DNA of 64,000 nt from an uncultured Clostridia bacterium. Lineage in GTDB: Bacteria > Bacillota > Clostridia > TANB77 > CAG-508. The position numbers and the translations under genes are program-made. The stretch is taken from assembly GCA_947581805.1 (NCBI GenBank), contig CANPVM010000002.1, positions 140,290-204,289 of the forward strand, written 5' to 3'. Position 1 is the stretch's first letter, and each line of letters begins with the position of its first letter. The notes under the pieces are model-generated. The model ran no database searches. It was given only the letters and a program-made list of their open reading frames with translations, and had not been told where the DNA came from. Below, in pieces: positions 1-27,757 of the stretch.

Positions 1-427
1 TTAATGTACAAGAAGATAGCATAACAATTACTTTTCCTTCTTTATTTTTTTTCATAATAGTTAAAAAATTATTCAATATAATTACTAAAGAGCGTAATGA
101 AATATTAATATCTTTATTAAATTTTTCCCATGTAATTTTTGAAAATTTTATATTCTCATACTTTCCTGCTGGTAAATGAACAATATGTGTAGGAATCTTT
201 CCTGTATTTTTTATTTCTTCGACAAATTGATTAGTTCCTTCTTCATCTAAAAAATTCCCATATATTAAAACTAATTTATCTCCTAATTTCTCTTTTAATG
301 TCACTAATTTTTCATTGTCATTCACATGGTGTGCTATGATATAGTCGTAATTTTTTGCTACTTCTGTAATTAATTGTACTCCTATGTCTGAAGATGCTCC
401 TGTAACTAATAACACCTTATTCTCCAT
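1..427 (-). CDS. Short-chain dehydrogenase/reductase (FabG-like), partial; continues beyond the window start
   Basis: The minus-strand translation from the ATG at 427 begins MENKVLLVTGASSDIG..., the Rossmann TGxxxGxG motif of SDRs. The start overlaps the stop of the MaoC-like gene by about 10 nt. Confidence 0.6.
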   Translation of the reverse strand, partial: MENKVLLVTGASSDIGVQLITEVAKNYDYIIAHHVNDNEKLVTLKEKLGDKLVLIYGNFLDEEGTNQFVEEIKNTGKIPTHIVHLPAGKYENIKFSKITWEKFNKDINISLRSLVIILNNFLTIMKKNKEGKVIVMLSSCTL

Positions 428-878
428 CTAAAACACCTACTTTCATAATTCCCCTTAATACCTTTTCTTGATTTTTATTGAATATTGAAACGTTTATTGT
501 AATTTGTTTGAAATTATCATTTATTTCTGTTACTTTTCCTTTTACTGTTAAAGGACTATCTGAAATAAATACAGGCTTTTTAAATATAACTTCTACACTA
601 TGTATTAAACTATATTTTCCCGGTAGATAAACTCCTGCTAAAGTTGATAAAAAAGATGATGTTAGCATTCCATATACTACTTTTTCTTCATATCCTTTTG
701 ATTTTGCATATGTTAAGTTGTTATGTAGTGGATTTGAATCTCCTGTTATTTCTAAGAATTTGTTCATTGTTTCTTCTGTAATTTCTACGCTAAAACTTTC
801 TTCCATTCCTACCTTTATATCTCTAAATGTGTATATTCCCGTGTGTGTGTGTGTGTGTGTGTGTGTGTACAGTATCAA
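417..878 (-). CDS. MaoC-like (hot-dog fold) dehydratase with a (Thr-His)n N-terminus encoded by a GT/AC dinucleotide repeat
   Basis: The 153-aa ORF reads ...IKVGMEESFSVEITEETMNKFLEITGDSNPLHNN..., typical of MaoC/(R)-hydratase family proteins. In this frame the only start is TTG at 878. An SD-preceded ATG at 888-886 lies in another frame. Confidence 0.6.
   Translation of the reverse strand: MILYTHTHTHTHTGIYTFRDIKVGMEESFSVEITEETMNKFLEITGDSNPLHNNLTYAKSKGYEEKVVYGMLTSSFLSTLAGVYLPGKYSLIHSVEVIFKKPVFISDSPLTVKGKVTEINDNFKQITINVSIFNKNQEKVLRGIMKVGVLDGE
841..868. repeat. (GT)14 dinucleotide microsatellite within the 5' end of the MaoC-like gene
   Basis: A perfect gt x14 tract read directly from the sequence. 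It is translated as THTHTHTHT on the minus strand. Confidence 0.9.
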
Positions 879-984
879 GGGTTTCCATTGTACTTCTTTT
901 TTCCTCCTTATTTTTTTATTTTGTATTTATTTTTTCATTCAATACTTTTTCATTACATATTTTTTTATAATGATTCATCATAGT

Positions 985-1990
985 CTTTATTAGTTATTTT
1001 CTTATAATCTTGTTTGAATCTTTTATATTCATTATCCCAAGAAGCATAATTTTCATCACCTCTATAATCTGGTAATTCATAATTTTCTTTTAAGTATTTA
1101 GCAAAGTATAATGTATATTTTGTTGCACCATAGACGTTTAGATGTGCATAATTATAAAAAAATCTGTATGATAACTAATGTTGTTTAATTTTTTCTCTAA
1201 ATTGCAATTAATAACTTTAAATCCATTTTCCTGTATAATTTTAACTGCACTATTTCATCTTTCTATTTTTCCTTCCTCAAAAATTCTTTTAGGTATTACA
1301 AATAAGACATTTATATCATTTTCTTTTATATATTTTATCAAATCACAGAGTATTTTATTACTTTCATTTTCTAGTTCAATAACATCGTTTGACCATGTAT
1401 ATTTATCTATGGAATCTATTATTGTTGTACCTTCATTAAATAGATACCCTTTATATAAGTCTGTTTTATTAGTTATACTATCTTTTGAAATGTTTTTCCA
1501 TTTATTACGATATAATAAAAAGCTATAATAAAAATTAAGATATTCTTTTTGATTTATATCTTTTTTATACTTTAATATATCATTTATGGCATCTATCTTA
1601 TTTTGGCAAAATTTCATAGTATTGTATCAGTAGTTTTCCTAATTTCTTCTGTTGTAAATGATTCTATAGTATTGGCAACTAATGCTATATCAATAACATA
1701 TAAATATGGATTTTGAGATTTTTCAATTTCTTTTATGCAGTATTTTGTTAGTGCAAATGGTTGTGTACTAGTTGAAAATAGACAAGTAGTATATCCATAT
1801 AAATTATAGGTTAACATCGTATTAAAATGTGCAAAAACATTACTACTTCCTATATACGCAACATCTATAGAAATTTTTTGGTTCTTTATAAAAATATGTA
1901 ATAAAAAATGTCTCTATCCAAAGTATATGATATACAGTAAAAATAAAATAAAAAAATTAGTAAAAATGTAATTGTTTTTATTATTTTTTT
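985..1990 (-). pseudogene. Decayed paralog of the DltD-like/SGNH-type gene at 5709-6728, with multiple frame breaks
   Basis: The fragment ORFs at 1614-1817 and 1255-1617 and the untranslated stretches at about 985-1190 and 1818-1985 align collinearly with the 5709-6728 protein. Matches include VAYIGSSNVFAHFN, YVIDIALV, FYYSFLLYRNKWKNISK and NYAHLNVYGATKYT. The breaks are not at CGG codons. Confidence 0.6.
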
Positions 1991-2009
1991 ATTTTTTCTT
2001 GGTCTCCTT

Positions 2010-3552
2010 TTAAAATTGTTTATAAATAAATGCTGTTGCATCATAACCTGCACCATAACAACCAAATATGATAATAGTGAAAATTAGTGTATATAATACT
2101 CCCCATCGAAATACAATATTTTGCTCTAATAATTTTTCTCTTACGTCTCTTCTTCTTGCTAAGAATTGCATCATAAATAAGATTATTAATGAAACAAATA
2201 ATACTGCTAAATCATAAAAATCTAATCCAATATTACTTATCATATTTAATAACATTTCTTTATTCATTAATGATTGTATGTTAATTGTAAACATATTTTT
2301 TATAATTTCTATAGCATTTGATACACTATTTGCTCTAAAGAAAATCATAGCAAAAGAAAATAACAAATAAGTTCTTATTACTTGATATAACTTATAACTA
2401 AATACTTCTGTATTAATTCCTAATTTATTATTAATCTTTTTTGATATTGGTCCGTAATATATCTTCTAAAAACATAAATATAAATTGCAATATTCCTGAA
2501 CCAATAATAAATTTATATTCTCCACCATGCCAAGCACCAATTAATATCCACATAATTAGCATTGATAGATACATTGGTATTTTCTTTGCTGCTTTTTTAC
2601 CAAATTTTGCTTTACATTTTTTTGCTAGGTTCTGCATAGCATCTGATTTTAATAATGGATAGAATATATAATCTTTAAGCCATGCCCCTAATGTAATATG
2701 CCAGTTTCTCCATAGTTCTGTAATAGTTCTTGAGAAAAATGGAAGATTAAAGTTTTCTGGCAATTTGATACCTATAATTTCAGATATTCCCATAATTACA
2801 TCAATAGAACCAGAAAAATTAGTATATAGTTGCATTACAAACGCCATGGCAGCTGCAATAATAAAGATAAATGTAAACATTTCTAAATTTCCATAAATAG
2901 CATCTACAAACATACCTAATCTTTGAGAAATTACTAATATTTTAAATAGTCCCCATAGAATTCTAATTAGTCCTCTACACAATGTATCATAATGTAGTTT
3001 GTGTCCTTCATATAATTGTTTTCCTACACTATCATAGCGAATAAATGGTCCTGATGTTAAAATTGGGAAATATGACATAAATAAAGCACACTTAAATATA
3101 TTTTTTTCTGCTTTGCAAGTACCTCGATAAACATCTACTAAGTAGCCTATCATAATTAATGAATAGTAACTAATACCTATTAATGAATTTCGTTGTACAA
3201 AGGTAAATTGATAATCTATATTTAACAAGTTATTGATATGATTTGCTGTTGCTAAAAATAAATTGGTATATTTTAAGTAAATTAGTTGTGCTAGTATAAT
3301 AATAATACCTAAAATCAAGATTTTTTTACCTTGTTTTGTATTTGTATGATTTTCTATTTTTCTTCCTAATATGTAACTTGGAACAAGAATAACTAAGGCT
3401 TGTATTACTGTACTGATATGTAGGTTATCATAAAATAAAAAGATAATACTTGAAATTAATAAGACTACCCATTGAAATTTTTTAGGCATTATAAAATAAA
3501 TGCATAATGTTATAACTACATAACATAAAAAAAATAATGATGTTAAATTCAT
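2010..3552 (-). CDS. MBOAT family membrane O-acyltransferase (DltB/AlgI-like) #2; needs a +1 shift at the in-frame CGG at 2452-2454
   Basis: The 373-aa ORF is multi-TM with MBOAT features and ends ...DILRTNIKKD* just after an in-frame CGG. Skipping the C gives ...DILGPISKK...YLLFSFAMIFFRANSV..., which runs into the 118-aa ORF carrying the conserved C-terminal FFRA motif. MBOAT#1 has the equivalent VIFRADN. Confidence 0.65.
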
Positions 3553-3553
3553 A

Positions 3554-3802
3554 TTATTTTCCCTCTATTCTGTCTAAAATGATATCTACCATTTCACCAA
3601 CGTTTTTCATTGTTGTTACTTCATTCATGTTGAATTTCATTCCAAATTCTTGCTCTACTGCTACTACTAGATTGATGTGTTCTAGGCTATCCCAATCTTC
3701 AATATCGTTTGATGTTGTTTCTTCTGTTACTACAATACTTTCATCATCAAATATATCTCTAAATACCTTATTTAATCTTTCAAATACTTCTTCTCTTTTC
3801 AT
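3554..3802 (-). CDS. Acyl/peptidyl carrier protein (DltC-like)
   Basis: The 82-aa protein has the phosphopantetheine-attachment motif DWDSLEH and sits immediately downstream of the FkbH-like gene. Confidence 0.7.
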   Translation of the reverse strand: MKREEVFERLNKVFRDIFDDESIVVTEETTSNDIEDWDSLEHINLVVAVEQEFGMKFNMNEVTTMKNVGEMVDIILDRIEGK

Positions 3803-3805
3803 TTT

Positions 3806-5587
3806 TTATTCCTCCACTTCAATTACATTATTTTTATTTGTATATCCTTTTGAGATATCTAATTTATAGGTTTTGTTTCCTTGTTCATCACAAGATATTT
3901 CTTCAAAACCTTGTAAATCATAGAAATTGTTTACCATTTTATTTTTTAAAGTTGGATAATAATAGCCATAAATTGTTTTTATATTTCTTTCTTTTGCTTT
4001 TTTTACCAACTCATCCATCATAGCAAATTCCATGTTTCTTTTTAACACTCTACAACTCATAATCCATAAATCTATATGTAGTTCATCTTCATTTTTAATG
4101 TTACCAATAACAACTGTAATAACGCCATTATCTCCAAAAATGTCTTCTAATTTTCCATATAGTTTTATATAGGTATCATCTTGATTGACTGATTCAATGT
4201 CTGCTAATGAATATCTTTTTGTTGTTAAGTTAAATTGATTACTTTTATTACTTAGTTGTGAAATTCTTTCCAAGTAAATTGGTTTAAATGTTGTGATTTC
4301 TGCTTTCATTTTTAATGAAAGTAAATAATCATCATAATTATCAAAGGTTGCCATCATTTGGCTTCTTTTGGCATTGTCTTTATACATTTCACTTTTCTTT
4401 AAGTCTTCGTTAGAAAAGTTGGTTACTTCAAAGTATCCATTATGGTCAATTATTTTTATATAGTTTTCTGGCACATCAATTTCAGGTGTTGAAAGTCCTT
4501 CTACATAGTCTTTACATATTTGTCTTTCTGCTGGGTTATCATCTACAAATACAAAACTATCTGCTCCTAAATTTAGTTCTTCTGCTATATCTTTTATATT
4601 TAGGTTTTTAGGATTCCAATTTGCTTTTATTATAATAAAGTCTTCTGGCTTTAAGGTTCCTGCTGGGTGGTTTAGGCCTGCTATTGCATTTTCATATTCA
4701 TTTTTGGAGTTGATATTTAATATAACACCTAAACTTTTATGTTCTTTTAAATAGTTTTGAAATTCTGTGTAAACTTGTCCACTTGGTACCTCTGGCCCAA
4801 TTTTCAAGTTTTCTACTCCATCATCTCCAACAATTCCTCCCCACAAAGTGTTATCTAAGTCTAATACAAAGGCTTTTTTATTTTTTCCATAAATTGATTT
4901 GATAATGTTTGCTAAGTTAAATGATAAATATGGAATGGCTGGTACTTCCATTGCGTATTTATACATATGCCAATAAAATTGATTTGACCATTTGTCTAGT
5001 CCATAACAAGATGATACATAGTTTATATCATTTATAAAGAAATTTTTGGTTTGGTTAGCATAGTCATAGAATTTTTGATTTAATCTTGTTATAAAGTTTG
5101 TTTTTCCGTGAATATCTACTGCATCTTTATTTCCTAGTAAACGATAGTATGGATATTCAAAGTTATTTTGAATGATGCTAACATTGAATTTTGAAAATAA
5201 CTTGTCCCACATTTTTTTAAATTTTTCATATTCAAAATTAAGTTTTTCTTCTACCATTTTTTCGTCATCATACATAATTGGATATTGTATAATATTTCTA
5301 TTGCTAGTGTGTATGTATATAATGTCTGGTTTAAAGTTATCTAATTCTTCGTTTCCAAACATAGCATCTTCATAAAATTTATTATATTCTGATTCATAAA
5401 ATGTAGGTTTTATGCCATAGTTTAACAAAAATAGTTCTAACATATTTTTTATTTCACTTGTGGTGGAGCCACCTAATATTGCTATGTTTTTTTCTAATAA
5501 ACCTGGTTTTAGCAATAGTTCTTTTTTTATTTTTCTTTTGTTTTTCATGATGTAATTTACATCAAATGGATATTCTAGTTTTTTCAT
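3806..5587 (-). CDS. FkbH-like domain protein (HAD-superfamily enzyme that loads a glyceryl unit onto a carrier protein)
   Basis: The 593-aa protein has the HAD motif I FVLDLDNTLWGGIVGDDGVENLKIG that is characteristic of FkbH/OzmB-type enzymes. It lies directly upstream of the ACP gene. Confidence 0.6.
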   Translation of the reverse strand: MKKLEYPFDVNYIMKNKRKIKKELLLKPGLLEKNIAILGGSTTSEIKNMLELFLLNYGIKPTFYESEYNKFYEDAMFGNEELDNFKPDIIYIHTSNRNIIQYPIMYDDEKMVEEKLNFEYEKFKKMWDKLFSKFNVSIIQNNFEYPYYRLLGNKDAVDIHGKTNFITRLNQKFYDYANQTKNFFINDINYVSSCYGLDKWSNQFYWHMYKYAMEVPAIPYLSFNLANIIKSIYGKNKKAFVLDLDNTLWGGIVGDDGVENLKIGPEVPSGQVYTEFQNYLKEHKSLGVILNINSKNEYENAIAGLNHPAGTLKPEDFIIIKANWNPKNLNIKDIAEELNLGADSFVFVDDNPAERQICKDYVEGLSTPEIDVPENYIKIIDHNGYFEVTNFSNEDLKKSEMYKDNAKRSQMMATFDNYDDYLLSLKMKAEITTFKPIYLERISQLSNKSNQFNLTTKRYSLADIESVNQDDTYIKLYGKLEDIFGDNGVITVVIGNIKNEDELHIDLWIMSCRVLKRNMEFAMMDELVKKAKERNIKTIYGYYYPTLKNKMVNNFYDLQGFEEISCDEQGNKTYKLDISKGYTNKNNVIEVEE

Positions 5588-5708: not shown

Positions 5709-6728
5709 TTACAATAGATTTTCAAAATCTTCTCCTATTACTTTCTCATAATTATTTTTAAATCTAATATATTCATTCTCCCATGAATTATAAAGTTCAT
5801 CATTTCTATGGTCAGGTAAATCATAATATTTTTTTAAGTATTCCGAAAAATATTTTGTATATTTTGTTGCTCCCCATACATTTAGATGTGCAGAATTGTA
5901 AAAATCTTTACTATAGTCAACTTTAAAATCTTCTAATGTATTAAAATTAATTACATCAAAACCATTTTCTTGTATAATAGATATTGCGCAATTAATACTT
6001 CCAACATTTTTAAAGACTCTACTAGGAACTACAAATAATACATTCAATTTATTTGCTTTAATATAATCAAGCAAGTCCTCTAATATTTCTTTATTTTCTT
6101 GTTTTAATCTTGTTTTTTCATTATTCCATTGATACTCATTTTGTTTTTCTACTTTATAGGTTCCTTCATCAAAAAGATATCCTTTATATAGTGTTTCATT
6201 ACCCACAATGTTTATTTTACTAATATTTTTCCATTTGTTGTGATATAGTAAAAAACTAAAATAATAGTTTATATAGTCTTCTTTTTTTAAATCTGTATAT
6301 TTTAACATACCATTAATTGCATCTATTCTGTTTTTAGAATTTTTTAAAGAGTCAATCACATTTCTTTGATACCCTTCTTTATCTTCACTAAACTCATCTC
6401 CTACTCTTGCTATATCTATTACATATAATTCAGGATTTTGATATTTTTTTGATTCTTCCAATAAATACTTAATTGCTGAAAAAGGTTGCGCATTTGTAGC
6501 TAACAAACTTACTGTAAAACCATGTAAATCATATGCTAATGGAGCATTATAGTGTGCAAGAACATTACTTGAACCTACATAAACAACGTCTATAGAATTT
6601 TTAGGTTCATCATAAAAATAGCCAACGTTTGCTTTTTCCAACCATAATACTTTGAAAACAATACTCCATAAAATGTAAAATATAATTAAAAATACTATAA
6701 ATTTAATGAATTTTATAATTTTTTTCAT
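5709..6728 (-). CDS. DltD-like/SGNH-fold extracytoplasmic acyl-transfer protein
   Basis: The 339-aa protein has an N-terminal TM anchor, a GSSN block (VVYVGSSNV) and a C-terminal D-x5-H block (DFYNSAHLNVWG). It is the terminal gene of a carrier-protein/MBOAT module. Confidence 0.45.
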   Translation of the reverse strand: MKKIIKFIKFIVFLIIFYILWSIVFKVLWLEKANVGYFYDEPKNSIDVVYVGSSNVLAHYNAPLAYDLHGFTVSLLATNAQPFSAIKYLLEESKKYQNPELYVIDIARVGDEFSEDKEGYQRNVIDSLKNSKNRIDAINGMLKYTDLKKEDYINYYFSFLLYHNKWKNISKINIVGNETLYKGYLFDEGTYKVEKQNEYQWNNEKTRLKQENKEILEDLLDYIKANKLNVLFVVPSRVFKNVGSINCAISIIQENGFDVINFNTLEDFKVDYSKDFYNSAHLNVWGATKYTKYFSEYLKKYYDLPDHRNDELYNSWENEYIRFKNNYEKVIGEDFENLL

Positions 6729-8153: not shown

Positions 8154-9443
8154 CTATTCGAACCTCCACACTTTTGCCAAATTGCTTGTTTCATCTCCTT
8201 CAGCATAATTTTCTACTGCTCCTCCATTATACATAATTAGTACTAAGCTAGGATTAAAACTTTTTATATAACTTTTTAAACTCCCATTATAATATCTTAA
8301 ATCGATTATAGATAAGTACTCATTTTCTAATGCTAAAAAAGGTGATACCACATCAGCAAAACTATCTTTTATCATCAATATTTTTTTATTATTTTTTACT
8401 AGCTCATTATGTATTTCAATCAATGGTTTTTCTCCATAAGCATACGCCCCGTATTGGCTAGTAGAATAATAATTACCATATTCAATACGTGACCAATCAA
8501 TAAGAGTATTTTCAAAGCTATCTGTTTTATCAATACCTTTATTTAAGATTTTAATGTTTAATCTTGTATTAAATTTTGGTGTTATTAAGTCAAAATCTTC
8601 TGGCTCAGCATTTTTCAAGCTTACATATCTTCCATCATATCCCAAATACATTTTAGGATATATTTTAATATTATACTTATCAGGATTAATATTTTCTATA
8701 TTTAAATTTAAATTGTATGTATTATTTAAATATTTAGAAATTTCTCCAGCTACCCATAGTCCTGTTTCCGGTAACCAATGGTGATCCGTTTTATAAAACA
8801 ATGATAAATTGTCTAATTTTTTTTGTTTTATAATTTTCCTTAAATCAAGATAATCTATTTTTCCATTAATTTGCTTTAGAAATTTATTTACATTTTTATT
8901 TGTATAATCTCTATATATATTTGATGGCATCGGTTGATTTTCTGATATTTTATATGGTGCTTGTACATATAATAATGTTATATCATTTTCTTTTAGATAT
9001 TTATTAAATTCTATTATGTTATTAGCACATTTATCAACATCTTCTTCATTTTGTATTTGTGATAAATACCCATTTCCTAAATCAACCCTATCAAGTTCAT
9101 TCGAATTAGATACTAATTTATATAACATTAAATCTTTATAGATATATGATAATTCTATAAACTTTTCATATCCTAATAATTGTTCAGATGTATGTGCTTC
9201 AATTTTAGTTTTAATATCTTCTATAATTGTTTCATATTTTTTTAAGATGCTTGCTTTTTTTACAGTTTGTACTTCATCTGCTTCAAATGGAAATAACTTT
9301 TCATAATCTACATTTATACTTGAATTATCTTGCTCTTTTTTTATTATTTTTTTTATGATTGTAATACCTGATAATATCATCATTGCAATCAATACTAAAA
9401 TTATAAAAAATGTAGTAAAATTCTCTATTTTATTCTGTTTCAT
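8154..9443 (-). CDS. DHHW family protein (AlgJ/PatB/DltD-like extracytoplasmic O-acyltransferase partner)
   Basis: The 429-aa protein has an N-terminal TM and the diagnostic motif KTDHHWLPETG. It lies immediately downstream of an MBOAT gene. Confidence 0.65.
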   Translation of the reverse strand: MKQNKIENFTTFFIILVLIAMMILSGITIIKKIIKKEQDNSSINVDYEKLFPFEADEVQTVKKASILKKYETIIEDIKTKIEAHTSEQLLGYEKFIELSYIYKDLMLYKLVSNSNELDRVDLGNGYLSQIQNEEDVDKCANNIIEFNKYLKENDITLLYVQAPYKISENQPMPSNIYRDYTNKNVNKFLKQINGKIDYLDLRKIIKQKKLDNLSLFYKTDHHWLPETGLWVAGEISKYLNNTYNLNLNIENINPDKYNIKIYPKMYLGYDGRYVSLKNAEPEDFDLITPKFNTRLNIKILNKGIDKTDSFENTLIDWSRIEYGNYYSTSQYGAYAYGEKPLIEIHNELVKNNKKILMIKDSFADVVSPFLALENEYLSIIDLRYYNGSLKSYIKSFNPSLVLIMYNGGAVENYAEGDETSNLAKVWRFE

Positions 9444-9460
9444 AATTATAGTCTCCCTTT

Positions 9461-26878: not shown

Positions 26879-27757
26879 TTATATATTTATATGATTTCCC
26901 GCATTGCAATGTAAGATTTCACCTGAAATACATTTACTTGCATCGCTCAATAAAAATAAAGTAACTTCTGCTATTTCCTCTGGTAAAAAACATCTACCTG
27001 AACTTTCATCTGTTGCCAAATTATTGCCATTTGTTCCAGCATAATCCTTTGTCATATCAGATATTGTTACACCAGGTGCTATACCATTTACTCTAATTCC
27101 ACTTTTGTAATATTTTTTTGCCAATGCCTGTATTAAAGAATTTAGGGATGCTTTTGTTAATCTATATGGTAAATCAGATGCACATGAACCGCCTTGCGAA
27201 CTAATTATTATTAATTCAGATTCTCCCTCATTTTCTTTATTCTCTATTTTTTTCTCAATAAATGCTTTTGATAAAAAATATGTTCCCCTAAGATTAATAT
27301 CAAATTGTTTATCAAAACTTTCTGTTGTTACGTTTTCGATACTTCCCTCATATAAGTTTATTCCTGCATTATTGATAAGAGCATTTATCACACCATTTTT
27401 AAATTTTTTGCAACATTGCTTTATAAACAAATTAGCATTATCTACATCACTTATATCAAATACTATATATGAACAATTTTTACCAAGTTCCTTACATGCT
27501 TTAATAAGTTTATTTTCATCTCTACCCGAAATTATAACATTAGCTCCTTCTTGAATACATTTTTTTGCCATATAATAGCCTAATCCTCGTCCTCCACCTG
27601 TAATTACAATATTTTTATTTTTTAATATTTCTCCATAATTAACTTGGGAGATTTTAACTTCTACATAATTTTCAGGTTGACTGGCTAAAATAAATTTTGC
27701 AATTTTTTTACAGAACTTTCTAACCCCCCCCCATTTATTTTGCTCCTTTCTATACAT
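26879..27757 (-). CDS. SDR-family oxidoreductase #3 with a G9 tract in its 5' region, overlapping the 3' end of pyruvyl transferase #2
   Basis: It has the motif NIVITGGGRGLGYYMAKK. Its N-terminal extension is homologous to SDR #1 and #2 (KISQVNYGEIL versus KINQIHSEKML). Codons W-G-G-V are tgg ggg ggg gtt. Confidence 0.65.
   Translation of the reverse strand: MYRKEQNKWGGVRKFCKKIAKFILASQPENYVEVKISQVNYGEILKNKNIVITGGGRGLGYYMAKKCIQEGANVIISGRDENKLIKACKELGKNCSYIVFDISDVDNANLFIKQCCKKFKNGVINALINNAGINLYEGSIENVTTESFDKQFDINLRGTYFLSKAFIEKKIENKENEGESELIIISSQGGSCASDLPYRLTKASLNSLIQALAKKYYKSGIRVNGIAPGVTISDMTKDYAGTNGNNLATDESSGRCFLPEEIAEVTLFLLSDASKCISGEILHCNAGNHINI

Follow-up and report, generated by a model that had tools for sequence, protein, structure and literature searches.

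The 64 kb of DNA from an uncultured Clostridia bacterium that were analysed here (the window) open with a group of genes on the minus strand. In the reading direction of that strand they encode an FkbH-like loading enzyme (3806..5587; PF21211, FkbH_N), an acyl/peptidyl carrier protein (3554..3802; PF00550), an MBOAT protein (2010..3552), its SGNH/DHHW-like partner (964..1990), a MaoC-like (R)-hydratase/dehydratase with a hot-dog fold and a DSNPLH motif (gene body 417..878; PF01575), and a short-chain dehydrogenase (SDR; 1..427) that runs off the window. The last two genes overlap, with the ATG of the SDR gene (427-425) lying ahead of the MaoC stop codon (419-417). The same overlap was present in the related loci L001, L004 and L082, and the SDR gene is likely translationally coupled to MaoC. 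By analogy, we infer that the FkbH/carrier-protein/MaoC/SDR/MBOAT/SGNH-DHHW module resembles a Dlt-like pathway, in which a small acyl group would be built on the carrier protein and moved to an extracellular glycan. A literature search yielded no paper on this type of FkbH and MBOAT cluster.

Two genes of the module are broken. The SGNH/DHHW-like gene carries at least four frameshifts, as revealed by tblastn with the intact protein of L004, and L082 has the same lesions; a single additional C near 2453, outside any repeat, splits the MBOAT gene, and the same split was found in L082, L130 and L131. Because the lesions are common to all four independent assemblies of the window species, both genes are regarded as real pseudogenes. 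Genetic code 4 (TGA = Trp) was rejected for the broken SGNH gene: the intact orthologue has Ile where the TGA falls in the alignment, and code 11 leaves the other genes open. The MaoC body is intact, as are the genes for the SDR, FkbH and the carrier protein. The MaoC gene had been described as adjacent to the carrier-protein/FkbH module; it does lie in the same region, but not directly next to it, as the two pseudogenes intervene. Next to the FkbH module, the window also encodes an intact second MBOAT and AlgX/DHHW pair (8154-10942) and a further intact SGNH-like gene (5709-6728), which could replace the dead pair.

The MaoC body scored 44.7 bits against PF01575 (cut-off 27), and the closest solved structures, PhaJ (1iq6, E = 5.5e-13) and HTD2 (3ir3), are both (R)-hydratases. 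Its GDSNPLH segment aligns with DFNPLH of 1iq6; the D-x-N-P-x-H motif of PhaJ carries the catalytic Asp and His. Most of the 1043 homologues found are 140 residues long and begin with MNEYKFEDIKIG. In an alignment of 24 homologues the motif residues D47, N49, P50, L51 and H52 are invariant, as are Y16, F18, D20, I21 and G24, and all 49 invariant columns of the family are kept in the window's MaoC body. An AlphaFold model (pLDDT 84) shows a central helix and a five-stranded sheet, with order beginning at about residue 15. Residues 1-12, which are encoded by the tract, are modelled as disordered (pLDDT <50), which suggests that a tail of variable length is tolerated.

All of the invariant residues between Y16 and G24 are encoded upstream of an internal Met codon (ATG 804..806), which is the start in the public annotation of this gene (P0001, 129 aa), and all 140-residue homologues start upstream of this segment. 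Because the homologues keep Y16, F18, D20, I21 and G24, the MaoC start must lie upstream of Met 806. The public annotation is too short and begins at the wrong codon, since the invariant and model-ordered Y16-G24 segment is lost; an exact look-up of its 129-residue sequence found no record. There is no ATG in the window at the position of the usual 140-residue start, and the only options upstream are TTG 878, which is in frame, and ATG 888, which is not.

Between these codons and the enzyme body lies a dinucleotide repeat, (GT)14 on the plus strand and (AC)14 on the minus, coding strand (841..868; 28 nt, 100% perfect). It is the sole dinucleotide tract of more than five units within the 64 kb (Tandem Repeats Finder and a regex scan), and 0.00 occurrences of a (GT)6 word were expected from 100 dinucleotide-preserving shuffles; the tract is far beyond chance. 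The minus strand reads, in order, a Shine-Dalgarno (SD) sequence AAGGAGG (909-903), 14 nt, ATG (888-886), GAA ACC CTT GAT ACT GT, the tract (868-841), and GGGAATATACACATTTAG. The spacer of 14 nt is long for an SD site; at the orthologous loci GAGGAG, GGTGGAG or AAGGAG precedes the homologous ATG by 5-10 nt. The tract begins in codon 7 after ATG 888, between the start codon and the functional domain, and sets the frame between this ATG and the MaoC body. At 14 units translation from ATG 888 is out of frame with the body and gives METLDTVHTHTHTHTHGNIHI, the product of a 21-codon ORF (823..888; METLDTV(HT)4HGNIHI) that stops at TAG 825-823. Upstream of the invariant Y-F-DI-G block the body frame has a single ATG, GTG or TTG, namely TTG 876..878. 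This possible weak start stems from the conserved codons CTT-GAT; its distance from the SD is 24 nt, and it has no SD in range. The preliminary description had noted the (GT)14 tract at the MaoC gene start, the SD-less TTG as the only body-frame start upstream of the conserved block, and the short ORF behind AAGGAGG, and in these points our reading of the frames agrees with it.

As the 2-nt unit is not a multiple of three, each change in unit number shifts the frame, and a simulation of 8-18 units gave a strict three-state cycle. ATG 888 is in frame at 9, 12, 15 and 18 units (product of 153-159 aa), only the TTG frame is open at 8, 11, 14 and 17, and neither is open at 10, 13 and 16, where the third frame stops at a TAA (815..817) and products finish with ..REYTHLEI*. 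Gain of one unit or loss of two would thus restore the ATG frame, as had been proposed.

Three poly-G tracts were further observed in minus-strand genes of the window, the GC content of which is 25%. G8 at 15556-15563 occurs in frame, 18 codons inside an SDR gene; G8 at 17235-17242 splits an Acyl_transf_3 gene into two parts (17213-17569 and 16506-17258); and G9 at 27724-27732 follows straight after the SD-ATG of another SDR gene, which is out of frame now and would be restored by G8 or G11. These tracts likely mark further phase-variable genes of the same polysaccharide locus, and because they occur at gene starts and frameshift junctions of this locus they suggest that the organism uses repeats in glycan genes generally.

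Orthologous start codons and tract length in related assemblies

The close relatives of the window are rabbit-gut ('Lapin') MAGs labelled as uncultured Clostridia or Bacilli, with about 25% GC. The MaoC genes of L007, L008, L020 and L032 are free of the repeat and have an N-terminal extension (MKNLKKAESLDTAHTNSY.., MNKIESTENHDAVHTYSY.., MEKQKVAEPSDTVKHMHF..) that is read from an SD-ATG in frame with MaoC and contains the motifs ..AESLDTAHT.., ..NHDAVHT.. or ..PSDTVKH... In P0122, P0125, P0129, P0132, L004 and L014 the extension M..(A)(K/E)(S/T)LDTV(HT)n.. is read from the homologous ATG, again in frame with the MaoC domain, and the METLDTVHT.. of the window is the same peptide. Because the orthologues read this extension (..LDTVHT..) from an SD-ATG, ATG 888 is the ancestral start, and the AC tract has grown out of the codons GTA CAC ACx. 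The repeat-free relatives lend support to the earlier proposal that the gene really starts at the SD-ATG of the other frame. A different situation was found at L006 (about 3990-4040), which has (AC)3 only, with the ATG out of frame, the TTG frame open and the gene intact on 4 contigs. This locus might represent either a locked state or else evidence of expression from the TTG frame.

The number of repeat units varied between assemblies of the same species. The window and L082, which is an independent assembly, were aligned over 4830 bp with 0 mismatches and one 6-nt gap, the tract of 14 versus 11 units being the sole difference. In sister species A the tract had 16 units in L001, with the ATG out of frame and the TTG frame open (P0007), 11 units in L083 and 8 units in L084, with the ATG in frame in both (P0122 and P0125), while 6.5 kb of the three loci showed 0 mismatches. 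Likewise, two loci of sister species B without mismatches over 6.5 kb had 10 units with the ATG in frame (L014; P0129) and 9 units with the ATG out of frame (L085; P0049, TTG frame). In species C (L004) the ATG was in frame at 14 units. Two more assemblies of the window species, L130 and L131, showed a single mismatch to the window over about 8 kb and terminated inside or at the start of the AC tract (ends at 8650 and 7583, respectively), which suggests length heterogeneity in the reads. An allele with the ATG in frame was not seen among the two alleles of the window species (14 and 11 units), both of which are in the TTG frame. A metagenome scan with GATACTGT(AC)6 gave 36 hits and no further MaoC alleles among them; about two thirds were GC-richer microsatellites of probably eukaryotic origin and were set aside.

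The relatives are low-coverage metagenome assemblies (about 4-12x). Because tract length alone differs between otherwise identical assemblies, we consider the tract hypermutable. Judged by these alignments, the repeat mutates orders of magnitude faster than its flanks and occurs in both phases in the sister species, which is the signature of a contingency locus. The translational phase switch suggested in the preliminary description is supported by the sister-species alleles, which are in and out of frame on otherwise identical DNA, and the number of units, which was to vary if such a switch exists, does so in related assemblies (14 versus 11; 16, 11 and 8; 10 and 9).

Probable phase switching and alternative explanations

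We consider it probable, at roughly three chances in four, that (AC)14 is a hypermutable repeat that phase-switches the MaoC-like dehydratase gene of a surface-glycan acylation module, and that the gene is out of frame at present. Slipped-strand mispairing in replication would add or remove AC units, and with each unit the enzyme body would move to another frame relative to ATG 888 and its SD. With a unit number divisible by three (12, 15 and so on) full-length MaoC with a disordered N-terminal (His-Thr)n tail would be made. At 14 units translation would yield a 21-residue peptide and stop, the body would be reachable only from the SD-less TTG 878, and the gene would be off or at best weakly expressed; expression of the overlapping SDR gene would probably drop along with that of MaoC. 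A three-level switch (high, low, off) is possible, because the TTG frame is that of both window-species alleles and of the intact L006 gene. Reversibility within a clone, an effect at the protein level, use of the TTG and a surface-glycan phenotype are what we infer from this arrangement. Programmed ribosomal frameshifting or transcriptional slippage as the main mechanism was rejected, as (AC)n is neither a slippery heptamer nor a homopolymer and the length of the DNA itself varies.

The alleles of the window species could also be read in another way. They differ by exactly 3 units and thereby keep the TTG frame, L006 is locked in the same frame with an intact gene on its 4 contigs, and ribosomes leaving the 21-codon ORF could, on general grounds, reinitiate nearby. 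TTG 878 might then be the working start and the tract a length-variable in-frame (Thr-His)n linker under selection, with the ATG ORF being irrelevant or a regulatory upstream ORF. We regard this as unlikely, given that there is no SD within 24 nt of the TTG, that the orthologues read the extension from the ATG, and that near-identical genomes of the sister species differ in frame and not just in length. Moreover, two alleles in one frame are weak evidence, expected about 1 time in 3 by chance, and they are subject to an ascertainment bias, as third-frame alleles would not be called as long proteins. The frameshift might alternatively reflect the decay of a dying cluster, with a mutable repeat of no adaptive or regulatory role and MaoC a pseudogene in the making. 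The MBOAT gene (one frameshift outside repeats) and the SGNH-like gene (at least four) are indeed dead in all assemblies of the species, in which the ON allele was not seen among two alleles, and these pseudogenes may point to a decaying module in which switching has lost its importance for the window species. Decay nevertheless seems an improbable account of the tract. MaoC body, SDR, FkbH and carrier protein are intact with the 49 invariant columns kept, the nearby MBOAT and AlgX/DHHW pair and SGNH-like gene could serve the module, and ON and OFF alleles are both present in sister species with intact clusters.

An artefact of assembly or sequencing (PCR stutter or a collapsed repeat) behind the unit number, with the real gene in frame, appears very improbable. 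Dinucleotide tracts do stutter and the relatives were assembled at low coverage, but the tracts span 16-32 nt and are shorter than reads and final k-mers, the differences amount to 1, 3, 5 and 8 units and not just to the loss of one, and the variation recurs in three species and in a phage-like contig. There is little to recommend the idea that the ATG ORF acts as a leader, with termination and reinitiation at ATG 806 giving the 129-residue MaoC and the repeat tuning the coupling, although several features would suit it: the stop at TAG 825 or TAA 817 sits 8-17 nt before ATG 806, AAAGG is found 5 nt before this ATG, the public annotation starts there, and stand-alone leader ORFs with the same repeat cassette at other loci (see below) may control downstream genes by coupling or attenuation. 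The 129-residue product would be without the invariant and ordered Y16-G24 segment, all 140-residue homologues start farther upstream, and alleles with in-frame fusion are present in the sister species. An Rfam scan of 600-1200 (E up to 10) gave only sub-threshold eukaryotic families and no known RNA element, a scan of 1-4000 for promoters and terminators gave no terminator and, in the 889-963 spacer, nothing resembling a promoter, and a hairpin with a T-run was not found after the window tract. The window copy as an attenuator was rejected, as it has no terminator, and it is assigned to the fusion type.

A leader cassette at other loci

The arrangement of an SD-ATG, about 10 codons with the consensus MKNA(E/K)S(L/V)(D/E/G)(T/A)V, and an (AC)n tract forms a cassette that we also found beyond the window. 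We screened the fetched loci for tracts of AC, AG, CT or GT of at least 6 units and of CG of at least 5 units. Five more tracts were present in MaoC-cluster loci (L007, L008, L012, L015 and L021), each behind a related peptide. In L007 (1760-1830, (AC)10) and L008 (1755-1835, (AC)13), where the MaoC genes are repeat-free, the cassette leader lies upstream of the FkbH operon, has its own promoter (TTGACA-17-TATACT/TATAAT) and is followed by a strong terminator hairpin before that operon. L012 (6891-6928) encodes a related leader (..EEKSLTAV) before an Acyl_transf_3 gene, and because its tract is (AG)19 the cassette is not restricted to AC units. In L015 (about 900-960) an (AC)11 cassette lies at an Acyl_transf_3 gene, and in L021 the tract lies at an SGNH-like gene. 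The Acyl_transf_3 gene of L015 also showed an apparent extra frameshift soon after the tract (..MIYGHCCWRIR*, then another frame).

The scan with GATACTGT(AC)6 further retrieved AT-rich bacterial contigs with the same layout before other genes. The cassette was fused to a DNA methylase gene with a DPPY motif (N6_N4_Mtase) in L104 (4724-4743, reverse strand) and to a NUMOD4 endonuclease-like gene in L090 (9403-9420; identical to L122, an IMG/VR viral contig), both now in the fully-off frame, and it preceded pilin-like genes in L087, L095, L096 and L101. In a phage-like element, where the layout precedes a phage-like gene, the tract was (AC)18 in L092, L105 and L123 and (AC)16 in L097, and comparison over 4666 bp gave 0 mismatches. 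With (AC)16 the leader ORF of this element runs past a hairpin that pairs with the SD of the next gene and ends at a TAATG overlapping the start of that gene.

A search with a leader profile, the query of which was padded with unrelated downstream sequence, returned 2458 proteins (E up to 10), of which the best 120 were without exception ORFs 29-73 residues long that had the consensus K-N-A-E-S-L-(D/E/G)-(T/A)-V-(HT)n. P0226, one of these leaders, precedes a SipW-type operon and was found on more than 117 contigs from a human-gut bacterium. In L124-L129 (positions 3001-3123), from a human-gut bacterium, the leader MQKLESLEAV(HT)5GNLINKKINITKGRLCPFLN with (AC)15 lies between rsgA and a SipW-like peptidase operon, and an identical peptide occurs on more than 117 contigs. 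Its stop codon falls within the loop of a terminator hairpin of 22 bp, behind which a T-run lies, and the other two frames stop 3 and 8 nt past the tract. More generally, two of the frames behind the tract of a stand-alone leader come to a stop within 3-20 nt, and the third runs into an intrinsic terminator (L124, L007, L008, L087, L095 and L101) or, in L092, L097 and L103, enters an SD-sequestering hairpin with a TAATG stop-start overlap. Of 18 distinct cassettes, 10 have the rare codon CTT for the Leu at position -3, as compared to about 10% CTT among the Leu codons of the window's genes, and the cassette appears to be conserved at the nucleotide level. Neither NCBIfam nor Pfam contains a family for the leader peptides, and a literature search on HTHTHT/THTHTH gave nothing relevant and no description of the cassette.

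These loci might indicate a portable phase-variation cassette, an undescribed, widespread and horizontally spreading stochastic switch that low-GC gut Firmicutes and their phages have placed before many unrelated genes. We put this forward tentatively, at somewhat short of even odds. Its targets would include MaoC, the FkbH operon, acyltransferase-3, SGNH-like, DNA methylase, NUMOD4 endonuclease and pilin-like genes as well as SipW-type fibre operons. Such a cassette would act either by in-frame fusion or as a leader ORF, and in the latter form only one of three frames would reach and melt the terminator or the SD-sequestering hairpin.

Known repeat-controlled systems and relevance for gut bacteria

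In lic1 and lic2A of Haemophilus influenzae, tetranucleotide repeats are preceded by start codons in two frames. Similarly, two alternative starts in different frames lie upstream of the window tract, and ATG 888, TTG 878 and the third frame could correspond to strong, weak and no expression, respectively, although repeat unit and organism differ and the use of TTG 878 in the window is putative.

The window feature itself is probably a case of classical simple-sequence-repeat phase variation as in Helicobacter pylori oipA (hopH), where a CT dinucleotide repeat in the 5' coding region turns the gene on or off by frame (PMC10564699). In both, a perfect dinucleotide repeat lies a few codons past the start, unit number sets the frame, and alleles differ between strains. 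Unlike oipA, the window has AC instead of CT and the gene encodes a cytoplasmic dehydratase of a glycan-acylation module and not an outer-membrane protein; its host is an uncultured low-GC gut Firmicute, and the tract belongs to a cassette common to unrelated genes. The capsule/LOS phasome of Campylobacter jejuni, in which poly-G tracts lie in glycan-modifying genes (PMC8437040, PMC6321876), also has several repeat-controlled genes in one surface-polysaccharide locus, and the window adds G8, G8 and G9 in SDR and acyltransferase genes; the repeat at MaoC is however a dinucleotide and not a homopolymer, and the phylum is another. A type III methyltransferase gene of Mycoplasma mycoides subsp. 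capri carries (AG)12 in its coding region (PMC3498834). Here too a dinucleotide repeat is coding in a low-GC bacterium and causes premature termination at some lengths, and in L104 the cassette is likewise found on a DNA methylase; the mycoplasma tract, in contrast, is internal to the mod gene, and a shared leader cassette has not been described for it.

The logic of the stand-alone leaders is already known from the pil1 leader peptide of Streptococcus gallolyticus, which combines GCAGA repeats with a terminator; there the repeat, situated in the short leader ORF, determines the distance that the ribosome travels, and a long leader melts the premature terminator (PMC3894217). The stand-alone cassettes of L124, L007/L008, L087, L095 and L101 have exactly this layout, whereas the window copy is without a terminator and forms a direct in-frame fusion. 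Their 2-nt unit also sets the cassettes apart from pil1, because it makes two of the three frames terminate immediately.

For a few pathogens (Neisseria, Haemophilus, Helicobacter, Campylobacter and mycoplasmas), phase variation driven by repeats is textbook knowledge. To our knowledge there is scarcely any documentation of it in commensal gut Firmicutes, in which DNA inversions are believed to prevail. The locus described here would represent an uncultured gut Clostridia bacterium that stochastically switches an enzyme decorating its surface glycans, and such decoration probably affects recognition by phages and by the immune system. The annotation from the wrong codon and the breaks of assemblies at the tract imply that MAG catalogues systematically overlook switches of this kind. 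What could be new is the conserved and apparently portable cassette. If confirmed, GATACTGT(AC)n after a short leader would provide a simple handle for finding phase-variable genes in a large section of the gut microbiota that is uncultured, and in its phages.
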